Shown here: piece after piece, positions 41,545-44,762 of the stretch | Position numbering within the stretch: position 1 is the stretch's first letter | Layout: every line of letters starts with the position of its first letter | Assembly: GCA_001782035.1 (NCBI GenBank) | Contig: MFNL01000002.1 | Span: 124,865-188,864, forward strand | Length of the DNA: 64,000 nucleotides | Source of the DNA: Candidatus Levybacteria bacterium RIFCSPHIGHO2_01_FULL_37_17 | Lineage (GTDB): Bacteria > Patescibacteriota > Microgenomatia > Levybacterales > UBA12049 | Direction of reading: 5' to 3' | Program-made: the position numbers and the translations under genes | The notes under the pieces: model-generated | What the model saw: only the letters and a program-made list of their open reading frames with translations | Database searches by the model: none | Told to the model about the DNA's origin: nothing

Positions 41545-41567
41545 TGAAACAATTATATCAAACTACT

Positions 41568-41584
41568 TATTTCCGCTGTGGAAG
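41568..41584 (+). repeat. 17-bp direct repeat TATTTCCGCTGTGGAAG (left copy; attL-like)
   Basis: Identical to 43850-43866. On the minus strand it reads ..IFHSGNK-stop, a pseudo 3' end of the recombinase gene. Confidence 0.8.
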
Positions 41585-41622
41585 ATTAAATTCCGCAAAT
41601 AGATTTATGATAAAATTTAATT

Positions 41623-43842
41623 GTGGAATTTCCCTTTGATTTTAGGGTAAAAGAAGACAAAGCAAAGCCTAAAGAGGGCAGGACAAGTGTCGAAAAAGAA
41701 CTAAGATTAGAAACTGCTGGACAAAGAGCTCTTGAGGCATCATTGTTTATCGATAAAAAGTTTTTGGATGTGGCAGTAATAACAGGAGAACAAACACCTC
41801 CAGAGCTTTTATTCGGACGGTCAGCTTGGAAAGGATATACTGATGCAAGGGCCTTAGCAAGGCAAAGTATAAGTCAAGAATTATCCGTAGATTTAATAAA
41901 AAGGATTCATGAAAAGGTAGCAAACCCCGTTGAGCCAAAAATTGCTGGGAAAATAAGAAACTCCAATGTAAGAGCGGGAGACTATAATGATCCTACGAAG
42001 GCTGTAAGATACACCAACGAACAAATTGAGAGCATAAAACAGAATCCTCATTTGGTTTTCGAGCCAACAGATGGTGCGAATACAGGTTTTATCCATTATC
42101 CTTTTACAAAAGACGGACAAAATACACGGCAGTATATTGAAGAGCTTCTCGAAGAAGTTTGCACTTGGTACAATGCGGAAATTAAAAACCCCAATGCCGA
42201 TCCACACCGCTTAGCAGCAATCTTACAAAGAAGAATAATATCTATTCACCCCTTTCTTGATGCAAATGGTACTACCTCCAGATTACTGATGAATTGGTCT
42301 TTAGAAAAGACTGGCGCTGCGCCAAGTGCCATAGATAATCCAAGTTCTGATATAACAACAAGCGAGGATGAGTGGACGCAAACAGTTAGAAACGGAAGTA
42401 AAAAATATGAAGAATCAAAACGAAGACTTAAAGCTCTAGAAGCCTGCGGGATAGAAGATATAGCTTTTGTGCTGGGCGTTTACCCTGAAAAAGCATTCTA
42501 TGATTATATTTTTAGATACATAGGTAAACCCCCGAGATTTTTTTCAAATAACGGAATGCAAGATCATCAAGACTTCGATAGCTTTTTTACTCAATTTATT
42601 AACGAGCTTTCTGAGTTTCAGAAGTTTTTACAATCTACTACTAAAATTGGAGATAAACAAATAACCCAAGGCGGTCTAATATCTGATGCTTTTATGAAAT
42701 TACAGTCTCAGCAGGGAGTATTACCTCAACAAGCGTTAGATGAATTCTTTACTGACGTTAATCTTTTCAGAGGAGGATCTTTAGACGTTGAAAATGTAGA
42801 TGATTCGCAATTATTACAATTACTTACGCAATACACAGGTGTGGGAACTGGATACAGGGCGCTTGGAAAGTCTTACATGTCGCCGCTTTCCGGAGATATT
42901 TCAAGCAGACAACAAATAAATGAGTCTGCTGCTTACTACAATAAGGTTGTCGCAAAACACTACTTAAAGACAAAGCATCCAACAAATAATACATATGGAG
43001 CCGATGTAAGGGAACTGAGCCAAGCTATAAGAGGGCATGTTGGCGGTGGGAAAAGCGTTTGGGAGTCTCCTTTCGTTAGCACTAGCTTCAGCAAGTCGGT
43101 TAGCGAGAGCTTTGCAGGAGGATTGGCAAAATATGGAGTTTTATTTGCACTAAAAGCACCAAGGGAAGGAATTATGTTGTCTTTCCGAGTTTTGGATGCT
43201 GACGGTCTTCCTGTTGCTAATGTAGGTACCTTCACGCATGAAAAAGAAGGTTTAATTGCGGGTGGAATAAATCCTAACTCTATTGAACAGGTAAGGATTT
43301 ATGAAAAAGGCAAGGGCAAAACACAAGCTCTATTTATTGCAGAAAGAACCGGAAACAACATAAGGATAGAGGACTATACTGGGGTCAATTTAACCATAAG
43401 AACTTACGTATATGACCAAGCGAAAGGACATTATGAATTTGTAAGCGAAGAAAGACCCAATATCCCTTCGACCACTCATCAGCCACAACTACTCGAAGAA
43501 CCGGTTCCCACTCAGGAAATTCCGTGGAAGGATTATTCTATCTTTGATATTCCCGAAAAGAAGACCTTGTTTGATGCTTATAGCTATGAGCTTGAACATT
43601 ATGCTAGCCCAATAGAAGAATATTACAAAAACCTTCCCATGGATGAGTTTAAAATGAAGGAGATTTCTAAGGAAAAGAGCCTTAAGCACTTTAAATTTGA
43701 AAATAAAGAATCCTCAATCTCTCATATTCAACACATAACTTCCAAAGAATTGCCTGAAATTATTAATTTCAATAATTTGAATATAAATAAATACCTGGAA
43801 GAGATTAAAGATTCAAAGGCTTACAAAAAAACAGATTGGTAA
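41623..43842 (+). CDS. Fic-domain protein with C-terminal ADP-ribosyltransferase-like domain (putative dual-activity effector/toxin)
   Basis: Fic motif HPFLDANGTTSRLL (HPFx[DE]xNGxxxR). C-terminal FVSTSFSKSVSESFAGG (STS...FAG, as in C3/iota-type ARTs) and THEKEGLI (ExE) with upstream Arg residues. Confidence 0.6.
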   Translation: MEFPFDFRVKEDKAKPKEGRTSVEKELRLETAGQRALEASLFIDKKFLDVAVITGEQTPPELLFGRSAWKGYTDARALARQSISQELSVDLIKRIHEKVANPVEPKIAGKIRNSNVRAGDYNDPTKAVRYTNEQIESIKQNPHLVFEPTDGANTGFIHYPFTKDGQNTRQYIEELLEEVCTWYNAEIKNPNADPHRLAAILQRRIISIHPFLDANGTTSRLLMNWSLEKTGAAPSAIDNPSSDITTSEDEWTQTVRNGSKKYEESKRRLKALEACGIEDIAFVLGVYPEKAFYDYIFRYIGKPPRFFSNNGMQDHQDFDSFFTQFINELSEFQKFLQSTTKIGDKQITQGGLISDAFMKLQSQQGVLPQQALDEFFTDVNLFRGGSLDVENVDDSQLLQLLTQYTGVGTGYRALGKSYMSPLSGDISSRQQINESAAYYNKVVAKHYLKTKHPTNNTYGADVRELSQAIRGHVGGGKSVWESPFVSTSFSKSVSESFAGGLAKYGVLFALKAPREGIMLSFRVLDADGLPVANVGTFTHEKEGLIAGGINPNSIEQVRIYEKGKGKTQALFIAERTGNNIRIEDYTGVNLTIRTYVYDQAKGHYEFVSEERPNIPSTTHQPQLLEEPVPTQEIPWKDYSIFDIPEKKTLFDAYSYELEHYASPIEEYYKNLPMDEFKMKEISKEKSLKHFKFENKESSISHIQHITSKELPEIINFNNLNINKYLEEIKDSKAYKKTDW

Positions 43843-43844
43843 GC

Positions 43845-44762
43845 TTATTTATTTCCGCTGTGGAAGGCTCTGTGGGTGTCACGAAGCTGGGGATTCGTAA
43901 CGTGAGTATAGATTTGGGTTGTTGCGATATTTTTATGCCCCAGCATTTCCTGAACGCTTCGAATATCTGCTCCGTTATTTAATAAATCAGTCGCAAAGCT
44001 ATGCCTAAGCGTGTGAACTGTTGCATCAACAGGAATTCTTGCACGGCGTACATATTTTTTAACAATGCGCTCAACCGATCTTGCGGTAAGCCTCATTTTC
44101 TCGCCATTATCGTCTTCAATCACTTTTCCGCTATAGCGAATGAACAGCGGTTTAAACTTATCTTTTCGCTCGCCTAAATACTTCTGGATCCAATCGGCAG
44201 CATCATCGGAAATAAATACTAATCGAAGCTTGCTTCCTTTTCCAATAACGCCAAACTCGCGCCTGTCTAAATTAATTTGTTCGTGATTTAAGCTCACAAG
44301 TTCAGAAACACGAAGTCCGGTAGAGAAGAGTAGCTCCAAAATCGCCTTATCCCTCAATCCTTCTTCCTTAGATACATCAACTGCTGCAATTAACTGGGCT
44401 ACTTGTTCTTTGTTTAAAAATTTAAGATTTCGGCTCTCGGCTTTTGGCAAATCAATCTTTGAAGGCTCTAATGTTTTAAAATCGTTCTTTATTAAAAATC
44501 TTAAAAATGAACGCAGGGCAATTACGTAATAGTTTTGGGTAATTCTTTTTAAAGTTAAGCCTTTTTCATCCTGCCGATTGGCAAGAAACACTCTGTATTT
44601 TCGAACAGTTGCTAAATCTAGGCTTTCGATACTTTTTTCACCATACCACTTTGCAAATGTTAAAAGATAATGCTTGTAATCGCGTATGGTAAGCTTGCTG
44701 CAATTACGCTCAATTTCGAGATATTCTAAGAATTGATCTATTAGGCCTAATAATTCACTCAT
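43845..44762 (-). CDS. tyrosine site-specific recombinase (XerC/XerD family)
   Basis: C-terminal catalytic HTLRHSFATDLL...GHKNIATTQIYTHV (R-H-R-Y). N-terminal SAM-like core-binding domain. Confidence 0.9.
   Translation of the reverse strand: MSELLGLIDQFLEYLEIERNCSKLTIRDYKHYLLTFAKWYGEKSIESLDLATVRKYRVFLANRQDEKGLTLKRITQNYYVIALRSFLRFLIKNDFKTLEPSKIDLPKAESRNLKFLNKEQVAQLIAAVDVSKEEGLRDKAILELLFSTGLRVSELVSLNHEQINLDRREFGVIGKGSKLRLVFISDDAADWIQKYLGERKDKFKPLFIRYSGKVIEDDNGEKMRLTARSVERIVKKYVRRARIPVDATVHTLRHSFATDLLNNGADIRSVQEMLGHKNIATTQIYTHVTNPQLRDTHRAFHSGNK
43850..43866 (+). repeat. 17-bp direct repeat TATTTCCGCTGTGGAAG (right copy; covers last 6 codons of recombinase gene)
   Basis: Perfect match to 41568-41584. 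Encodes FHSGNK-stop of the recombinase on the minus strand. Confidence 0.8.

Follow-up and report, generated by a model that had tools for sequence, protein, structure and literature searches.

Cis-mobilizable elements (CIMEs), a concept that comes from the sites of streptococcal integrative and conjugative elements (ICEs), are used as a category in ICEberg 2.0 (PMC6323972), and integrative mobile elements that exploit Xer (IMEXs), such as CTX-phi and TLC-phi, use Xer recombinases for their integration (PMC6744903, PMC9226527). Islands in the 3′ ends of protein-coding genes are represented by SGI1 at trmE and by the dusA-targeting islands (PMC8409611), and pdif modules have been described on plasmids of Acinetobacter (PMC11705084, PMC12907356). 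Here, we analysed a 64-kb stretch (referred to as the window) of a Candidatus Levybacteria contig (MFNL01000002.1, positions 124,865 to 188,864), from the metagenome-assembled genome of a groundwater bacterium, in which a gene for a protein with a Fic domain and a predicted ADP-ribosyltransferase (ART) domain is bracketed by direct repeats of the 3′ end of the adjacent xerC gene, which encodes a tyrosine recombinase of the Xer type.

The genomes of the Candidate Phyla Radiation (CPR, Patescibacteria) are very small and compact and are believed to hold few classical mobile elements, and little is known about how accessory genes come and go in these bacteria. We read positions 41567-43848 of the window as a non-autonomous, single-gene integrative cassette that entered xerC in a Campbell-style event by means of a mimic of the gene's tail, with a recombinase acting in trans, and we put the probability of this reading at about 60%.

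Results

A displaced xerC tail and precise empty sites

The features of the locus are as follows, in window coordinates.

40717-41544, minus strand: membrane-protein gene, the next gene after xerC before the insertion; downstream flank
41552-41560, minus strand: putative extended -10 element for the membrane-protein gene (TGATATAAT), as read from the sequence; chromosomal flank, outside the insert
41563-41586, minus strand: left repeat copy, displaced original 3′ end of xerC (IFHSGNK-TAG); exact core 41567-41584; putative attL
41585-41622, plus strand: non-coding left end of the insert (38 nt), putative promoter of the Fic gene
41623-43842, plus strand: cargo gene (739 aa) with an N-terminal Fic domain, a C-terminal ADP-ribosyltransferase-like domain and a low-complexity tail
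43845-43868, minus strand: right repeat copy, functional 3′ end of xerC (AFHSGNK-TAA); exact core 43849-43866; putative attR
43845-44762, minus strand: target gene, Xer-type tyrosine recombinase (305 aa) with the Pfam Phage_integrase domain and a SAM-like N-terminal domain

The 17-mer TATTTCCGCTGTGGAAG, which a first-pass annotation of this DNA had reported as a direct repeat, occurs at exactly two sites in the window, 41568-41584 and 43850-43866, and no further site was found there when up to two mismatches were allowed. We extended the exact repeat to 18 bp (TTATTTCCGCTGTGGAAG, at 41567-41584 and 43849-43866). In an ungapped register, 20 of 21 positions are identical between 41564-41584 and 43846-43866, which makes the 3-nt indel that had been proposed for the longer match unnecessary. 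The spacing from copy to copy is 2,282 bp, and the unit spans 41567-43848. The minus-strand sequence is ATC TTC CAC AGC GGA AAT AAG TAG for the left copy and GCC TTC CAC AGC GGA AAT AAA TAA for the right copy; within the repeat, the wobble base of the lysine codon and the stop codon are the sole differences between the two copies.

The cargo open reading frame (ORF) is the single credible ORF between the copies, and its Fic domain is the sole family match there. It starts 38 nt past the left copy and stops 2 nt short of the xerC stop codon. No ORF for an integrase, recombinase or transposase was found between the repeats, in agreement with the initial description of a single gene without an integrase of its own, and no Xer paralogue was found elsewhere in the 64-kb window.

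Two relatives carry the site in its empty state. In L025 (our locus label), the closest relative found, with a membrane protein 81% and an XerC 86% identical to those of the window, xerC ends in TTC CAC AGC GGA AAT AAG TAG, which is followed by TTTGATATAATTGCATCA and then by the ATG of the membrane-protein gene. The same empty junction is present in L081 (membrane protein 72%, XerC 89%). Written for both genomes, the junction is ...TTCCACAGCGGAAATAAGTAG + TTTGATATAATTGC(A/C)TCA + ATG, with a spacer of 18 nt between stop codon and ATG. An empty site of this kind, with xerC directly followed by the membrane-protein gene, is what the first-pass annotation had predicted.

The left copy of the window together with its outer flank is identical to the xerC end plus spacer in these empty sites. 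Because of this identity, the left copy can be taken as the original end of xerC, pushed 2.3 kb away, and the AAA TAA of the right copy, in place of the ancestral AAG TAG, was presumably supplied by the insert. Both the translations of the copies and the junctions in L025 and L081 thus bear out the assignment of the right copy as the recombinase end and of the left copy as a displaced pseudo 3′ end. Since the empty sites of relatives show the junction, the repeat can be regarded as a true insertion signature, and the insertion is confirmed by precise empty sites.

A third relative, L082, is filled; its membrane protein is 68% and its Fic protein 72% identical to those of the window, and the same putative Fic promoter is present. 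The tree of the membrane protein has the topology (L082 filled, ((P0016, L081 empty), (L025 empty, window filled))). Because filled and empty states are interleaved on this tree, at least two events of gain or loss would be needed.

No terminal inverted repeats were found at the cassette ends. A simple scan gave neither an intrinsic terminator nor a sigma-70 -35/-10 promoter at the repeat, and both explanations of the repeat were rejected on this basis.

A second duplication of the xerC tail in a more distant genome

Fic-ART genes lie convergent with xerC and abut its stop codon in four divergent genomes, namely the window, L030, L031 and L084. In L031, whose Fic protein is 50% and whose XerC is 74% identical to that of the window, the Fic gene is bracketed by a direct repeat of this genome's own xerC tail, TTATTCCCCGAGTGGAAGGCTTCGTGGA, which is exact over 28 bp and identical at 31 of 33 positions overall; the left copy reads IHEAFHSGNK-TGA. 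In the window and L031 alike, repeat identity begins at the same nucleotide, after the second base of the lysine codon, and the mismatches between the two L031 copies are likewise limited to the lysine wobble base and the stop codon.

The two loci differ in the repeated sequence itself. The Ser-Gly codons are AGC GGA in both copies of the window and TCG GGG in both copies of L031, a difference at 4 positions. Two non-coding relics could not by chance have kept step with their coding partners over four substitutions. Because both copies covary at these 4 positions within each genome, the duplications in the window and in L031 must have been formed or homogenised independently at the same position. 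Separate duplications at the same nucleotide point to a site-specific process and not to a single frozen accident, and this is our main argument. Mismatches clustered at one edge would be expected if that edge were a heterologous arm with a mimic of the tail, and would not be expected from random drift.

One small similarity near the left boundary was noted in passing: the hexamer TTCCGC at 41591-41596, just within the insert (ATTAAATTCCGCAAATAG), recurs 18 nt from the core TTCCGC at 41573-41578. This duplication has no counterpart in L031 and is probably due to chance.

Proposed mechanism of entry and excision

We propose that the cassette would have existed as a circle of ~2.3 kb, consisting of the Fic-ART ORF, its own leaderless promoter and, between stop codon and promoter, the tail mimic, an attachment sequence of ~21 nt that would resemble the last codons and the stop codon of xerC. 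Conservative (Campbell-type) recombination between the mimic and the real xerC tail, with a crossover within the 18-bp core, would insert the circle. The original tail (AAG TAG) and the promoter downstream of it would thereby be moved 2.3 kb and become the left copy, and the mimic brought by the cassette (AAA TAA) would now end xerC.

Recombination of copy with copy would lead to scarless excision and would give the empty site as it is found in the sister genomes. The excised chromosomal junction (attB) would be expected to read ...GCCTTCCACAGCGGAAATAA[G/A]TA[G/A] joined to TTTGATATAATTGTTTCAATG, and the junction of the circle (attP) would read ...GATTGGTAAGCTTATTTATTTCCGCTGTGGAAGATTAAATTCCGCAAATAG. 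As the cassette has no recombinase gene, the enzyme would act in trans, with the adjacent XerC, the integrase of a helper element or short-homology recombination as candidates.

Related cassettes at other target genes

More distant Fic-ART genes, with 30-40% identity, are located away from xerC and are typically convergent with and abutting a housekeeping gene. Their targets include a sortase gene (L037), a gene for a YbaK-type editing domain (L069), the cupin-type glucose-6-phosphate isomerase gene pgi (L074) and the dihydroorotate dehydrogenase gene pyrD (L077). When flank was compared with flank, several of these genes proved to have significant direct repeats, of 44 nt with 91% identity and an exact core of 17 bp in L074/L071, of 22 nt with 86% identity in L077 and of 50 nt with 92% identity in L078, in which the cassette is co-directional with its target and the right copy ends the Fic ORF. 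The possibility that L078 is a circular contig was rejected, as its 50-nt repeats are 92% identical, are internal and have unrelated flanks.

The functional pgi tail in L074 ends in ...VIPEPEWLTAQEYAKSLIQFK-stop and the displaced one in ...VVPEPEWLTAEEYAIHTLKL-stop; for pyrD in L077, the respective tails are ...NISEAVGKDNS-stop and ...NISEAGGKGIN-stop. Both displaced tails still have an open frame with its own stop codon, and they look like alternative orthologous tails with conservative substitutions rather than products of random decay, as is classical for integrative elements that bring along a substitute 3′ end. Among the loci retrieved, none was an empty site for the pgi or pyrD target. 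Across the cassettes, 38-62 nt precede the ORF start and 0-28 nt follow the stop codon, so that they consist almost of the ORF alone. Because the succession of repeat, ~40-60-nt promoter, ORF and repeat recurs at independent loci, it is unlikely that the cassette is a larger element that has decayed, which had been one of the two origins initially suggested for it.

The variety of targets bears on a further possibility, in which an enzyme supplied in trans would make staggered cuts 20-50 nt apart in the tail of a gene, as in transposition, and gap filling would duplicate the tail. At every locus the repeats come from the target, and they differ between targets (xerC, pgi, pyrD, L078); a duplication made de novo would need no ready-made mimic for each target. 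However, the repeat lengths vary widely (18-21, 28-33, 44 or more, 22 and 50), and there are neither terminal inverted repeats nor a transposase. Moreover, the mismatches in the window and in L031 are all synonymous and lie at one edge, in the lysine wobble base and the stop codon, which is improbable as drift from an initially perfect duplication, and the displaced tails of L074 and L077 have the likeness to conservatively substituted orthologous tails described above. We regard this explanation as very improbable.

Evidence against mobility, long residence and chance

Several findings weigh against a cassette that is mobilised in trans. Among the repeat cores at xerC, pgi, pyrD and L078 we found no common motif beyond chance; the best 12-mer identities among the repeats were 7-8 of 12, a value equalled or exceeded by 41-98% of random segments, and a shared recognition core was rejected because these identities fall within the random range. 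Since the repeats at different targets have no common motif, a single sequence-specific recombinase fails to explain all of the sites. The repeats also lack the inverted-arm core that is typical of tyrosine-recombinase sites. Viral contigs, phages and plasmids yielded no vehicle or helper element: the IMG/VR viral contigs contained neither Fic-ART relatives nor the exact tail core, phages gave no matches, and the plasmid matches were limited to weak Fic-domain matches on Bacillus plasmids. CPR mobile elements are poorly sampled.

The state of the site in other sequences adds to these points. It is filled in 21 of 21 contigs with the exact XerC and in 21 of 21 contigs with the exact membrane protein, contigs with the identical Fic gene are likewise filled, and among all of these contigs neither an excised circle nor an empty junction from the same population was found. 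The left copy (pseudo-tail) of L082 is truncated and mutated (AACAGTGGGATTAAGTG), and L030 (Fic 52%), L080 (Fic 61%) and L084 (Fic 42%, XerC 78%) are filled and have no left copy. The Fic gene at this position in the absence of repeats, which the first-pass annotation had named as an observation that would speak against insertion, is thus encountered in these last three genomes, and L082 has a decayed left copy. The left neighbours differ among the three (PLD in L030, a 202-aa ORF in L080 and pyrC in L084), and we read the missing copies as secondary losses through rearrangement or erosion of the flank. Finally, the divergence of Fic tracks that of the host, with 50-52% identity for Fic vs 44-46% for folD, 53% for SIMPL and 74% for xerC; between L030 and L031, Fic is 79% and xerC 82% identical. 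These values are thus also compatible with a long vertical residence at the xerC locus.

On such an account, the Fic gene would be an old resident that goes back to one ancient insertion, has been inherited vertically and has no present mobility. The empty sites would have arisen through repeat-mediated deletion (slippage or short-homology recombination), and the two copies would have stayed alike through occasional gene conversion, or because the left copy is under selection within the promoter region of the downstream gene. The parallel between Fic identity and host gene identity favours this account, as do the relic-like decay or absence of the left copy in L082, L030, L080 and L084 and the filled state of all population-level contigs. 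In addition, neither of the empty relatives L025 and L081 has a change in the 18 nt, which marks a slowly evolving stretch in this clade, and the left copy lies just upstream of the membrane-protein gene's -10 element. The account needs, however, either parallel, identical changes at 4 positions of both copies in the lineages of the window and L031 or conversion between repeats of 18-28 bp that are 2.3 kb apart, together with at least two independent scarless deletions, and it leaves unexplained both the tail signatures of related genes at pgi and pyrD and the clustering of mismatches at one edge of the repeat. We consider it unlikely.

Length by itself says little about the repeat. An exact direct repeat of 18 bp within 15 kb was present in 1 of 20 shuffles of the window, and in AT-rich DNA such a repeat taken alone is only marginally non-random, as might be seen if a chance repeat lay beside an ordinary gene. 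The repeat, however, falls exactly at gene boundaries, is in the same reading frame and matches the empty junction of two relatives, and L031 has the same architecture with a different sequence. In a screen of the window that covered the 3′ tails of 67 ORFs, the xerC tail alone had a significant displaced copy (E 2e-5, with the next best at 3e-3); none of the other ORFs screened has a displaced tail, so that such displacement is no general feature of the 64 kb. Judged from these sequence comparisons, a chance origin can be considered effectively refuted. A non-autonomous cassette entering through a tail mimic is the reading that we favour.

Two features of the sequences that were compared are recorded here. 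Many short metagenome contigs with the exact XerC or membrane protein end within the Fic gene at differing positions (L003, L006-L010, L019, L021, L023 and L024), and these breaks could reflect strain variation of the cargo or low coverage. In L080, whose Fic protein (61%) is the closest homologue outside the species, there is an apparent frameshift in the ART domain at ~2632-2644, after which the protein match resumes in another frame; this points to decay of the copy or to an error in the assembly.

The adjacent recombinase as a candidate catalyst

A more specific version of mobilisation had been put forward in the first-pass annotation, according to which the neighbouring recombinase moves the cassette. 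The adjacent housekeeping XerC would then recognise the tail of xerC itself as a recombination site, at which it would insert and excise the Fic cassette in an IMEX-like or integron-like manner. Such a role would fit the convergent position of Fic-ART genes at the xerC stop codon in the window, L030, L031 and L084, which includes a separately grouping Fic lineage (the Fic protein of L084 is on a separate branch of the Fic tree), as well as the regeneration of the repeat at an identical nucleotide position in two lineages. It would also fit the combination of a cassette without a recombinase and an adjoining recombinase that is full-length and of the Xer type. A precedent is provided by the XerS/difSL system of streptococci, in which dif lies directly beside the single Xer gene (PMC1914069). 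Furthermore, the cumulative GC skew of the window has its maximum at 42-44 kb, the Fic/xerC junction, although this signal is local, with a flat course over 0-28 kb, and gene orientation alone may explain it. From 28 to 44 kb the curve climbs, and from 44 to 58 kb it declines again, a shape that is terminus-like.

The remaining evidence does not favour XerC. Cassettes with the same signature are found at the tails of pgi and pyrD with no recombinase nearby, and the repeats there have no core in common with the xerC-tail repeat. The architecture of 11-6/8-11 inverted arms is missing, as is any likeness to known dif sites: the E. coli, B. subtilis, difSL and difH sites had no match when the window was scanned for them, a search for 9-nt inverted arms with spacers of 5-8 nt at both junctions gave nothing convincing, and the hypothesis that the junctions are dif sites was rejected on both counts. 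Unlike conserved dif sites, the tail varies synonymously. Its codons are identical at 5 of 6 to 6 of 7 positions vs ~55% in the gene body among the three closest genomes, whereas across the family the tail is not conserved synonymously, and 2 of 6 codons are identical between L084 and the window. Constraint on the tail at the nucleotide level is thus slightly above that on the gene body among the three closest genomes but not across the family, and was set aside as not decisive.

The target protein itself matches the NCBIfam models for full-length XerD and XerC with 265.7 and 253 bits, respectively, both below the equivalog cut-offs, and passes that for XerA (229.6 bits vs a cut-off of 220). 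It can be described as a housekeeping-like Xer protein and is an unproven candidate catalyst for the cassette. With same-signature cassettes at pgi and pyrD, no shared motif, no dif-like architecture and synonymous variation of the tail, mobilisation by the neighbouring recombinase is unsupported, and the proposal stands unproven and weakened. We hold it to be doubtful that XerC uses its own 3′ end in this way, and XerC as the enzyme that catalyses the trans-acting step of the proposed mechanism is a possible but doubtful choice.

Putative promoters and cargo protein of the cassette

Extended -10 elements (TGnTA(T/A)AAT) were identified by eye. One of these, TGATAAAAT, is located at 41608-41616 on the plus strand, 6 nt upstream of the GTG start codon of the Fic gene, and both the element and its spacing are kept in L030, L031 and L082 (the copies in L030 and L031 are both at ~5984-5992). 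Outside the insert, TGATATAAT directly follows the displaced stop codon and lies 7 nt ahead of the ATG at 41544, and TTTGATATAAT likewise follows the xerC stop codon in the empty sites of L025 and L081. The membrane-protein gene would accordingly have a promoter for a leaderless transcript, and the Fic mRNA is probably leaderless as well. With -10 elements 6-7 nt from the membrane-protein and Fic starts there is no space for a ribosome-binding site, which suggests leaderless mRNAs.

The N-terminal part of the cargo protein matches the Pfam Fic family (PF02661) with 48.3 bits against a cut-off of 24 (E 1.8e-12), and profile matches of this half to structures in the PDB include FICD, IbpA and AnkX. 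Its motif, HPFLDANGTTSR, is a variant of the HxFx(D/E)GNGRxxR type, and with this variant the domain may carry out AMPylation or another chemistry. For the C-terminal half, no significant match was found in Pfam or among PDB sequences, and an assignment to the ART family at the sequence level was dropped for this reason. Residues R383, S486-T-S488 and E540-x-E542 are invariant across 13 homologues. The AlphaFold model of the cargo has a mean predicted local distance difference test score (pLDDT) of 87 and a predicted template modelling score (pTM) of 0.84, and the top Foldseek matches were cholera toxin A1, the Rhs ARTs TreX and TreTu, pertussis toxin S1, PltA and LT; the matches to ART toxins had template modelling (TM) scores of 0.4-0.5 and E-values of ~2e-3. 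From the motif pattern and the model, an R-S-E ADP-ribosyltransferase fold is a reasonable prediction for this half, and the Fic/ART label that the gene had received from the outset is reasonable by fold and motif (Pfam Fic, invariant R/STS/ExE and the model).

There is no room for a partner gene (immunity or antitoxin) within the window cassette. In the L077 cassette, a small ORF of ~50 aa (~1880-2036) overlaps the Fic start (ATAATG) inside the repeats and may be such a partner gene, encoding an antitoxin or immunity protein; it is absent from the window cassette. In the representative library, the Fic module also occurs inside giant proteins of 4,000-8,000 aa, similar to modules of polymorphic toxins, and a Fic-only domain is present in many Nocardia genomes. 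In the long forms of the family, which measure 1,080-1,354 aa, the Fic-ART unit is preceded by an N-terminal extension of 440-740 aa; they are encoded at the following positions.

L075, 3727-7791: long Fic-ART form
L076, 3192-7253: long Fic-ART form
L078, 180-3422: long Fic-ART form

Neighbouring genes

The xerC gene is embedded in the neighbourhood gyrB-gyrA-folD-SIMPL ... xerC-glycoside hydrolase (GH) ... murI-DUF5656-YebC, and the order gyrA-folD-SIMPL...xerC-GH...YebC is common to the window, L025, L030 and L031. Upstream of xerC in L031 there is a 22-nt direct repeat (9100-9121 and 9167-9188; TTTATTTTGCGACGTGCAAATG and TTGATTATGCGACGTGCAAATG), and a sequence resembling it, ATTTTGCGACGCG, is located immediately upstream of the xerC start in the window (44763-44780). 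Repeats of the TTTATTTTGCGACGTGCAAATG/ATTTTGCGACGCG type may be an operator or another conserved site.

Elsewhere in the window, the intergenic motif C(C/G)GAAAATTTGGTTTTGA is present in five copies (at 26630, 27210, 27507, 28878 and 29127), each just 5′ of a promoter-like TTGAC...TATAAT and a hypothetical ORF on the plus strand (26830-27156, 27269-27502, 27555-28874 and 29169-29693). The GAAAATTTGGTTTTGA motif looks like a shared operator or regulon motif of a small gene cluster.

Discussion

The locus presents a toxin- or effector-like gene as a presence/absence cassette with edges that are precise to the nucleotide and with an essential target gene that is left intact. If it is actively mobilised in trans, the cassette would be among the smallest integrative units described, and it would offer a route by which episymbiotic bacteria could exchange genes for host interaction or antagonism. 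If the enzyme is the host Xer protein, Xer-exploiting elements would gain a new type of site and a new phylum. One could go further and picture an integron-like or IMEX-like system of gene capture in Levybacteria, in which a single housekeeping Xer protein would use its own gene's 3′ end as the site for minimal, circular, single-gene toxin cassettes with tail mimics, and in which CPR bacteria would exchange such integrase-less cassettes in the last codons of essential genes; we offer this as a speculation that is unlikely to hold. Full-text literature searches did not return a description of such cassettes in CPR.

Among described systems, transposons and insertion sequences are set apart by the absence here of a transposase, of terminal inverted repeats and of a duplication of fixed length. 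Integron cassettes resemble the unit in that they are single ORFs, presumably circular, with a site near the 3′ end of the ORF and a position beside a tyrosine-recombinase gene. They differ, as here no attC-like palindrome was found at the cassette, which has its own extended -10 promoter and is a single cassette and not an array. Furthermore, attI lies upstream of a divergent intI in integrons, whereas the 3′ end of a convergent recombinase gene forms the site here, and the integron-integrase models score the window recombinase with 124 and 79 bits vs cut-offs of 265 and 435. The pdif modules are similarly small gene modules without a recombinase, often with toxin-antitoxin or resistance genes, which are thought to be moved by the host XerC/D. 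Their 28-bp XerC/XerD sites are inverted and plasmid-borne, whereas the repeats described here are direct, chromosomal and coding and are not dif-like. From these comparisons, the cassette does not appear to be an integron cassette, a pdif module or a transposon.

More is shared with islands in the 3′ ends of protein-coding genes, in which the target ORF is likewise kept by element-borne sequence and tail repeats and a displaced pseudo-tail are found; those islands measure 10-100 kb and bring a tyrosine integrase and an excisionase of their own, whereas the window cassette measures 2.3 kb and carries one toxin-like gene. IMEXs are alike in having no recombinase of their own, in leaving direct repeats after integration and in their association with an Xer sequence. 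Their integration site is dif, which is conserved, 28 bp long and located at the terminus and has two inverted binding arms, whereas the site here is the coding 3′ end of an xer gene without such an architecture, relatives of the cassette target non-Xer genes, and the site is not conserved synonymously. CIMEs and integrase-less remnants of integrative elements share attL/attR-like repeats of a housekeeping 3′ end, the lack of recombination genes and the need for a recombinase in trans. Viral contigs, phages and plasmids, in which the mobile elements of CPR are poorly sampled, gave no related autonomous element that uses this site. In contrast to CIMEs, the window cassette consists of a single ORF with ~60 nt of non-coding sequence, a minimal form whose recurrence at several target genes argues against decay from larger elements. 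By analogy, the cassette would be closest in behaviour to CIMEs and IMEXs, with a preservation of the target as in 3′-end islands, and it is set apart from all of these by its one ORF with ~60 nt, its recurrence at several housekeeping genes, its CPR host and its two-domain, toxin- or effector-like cargo.

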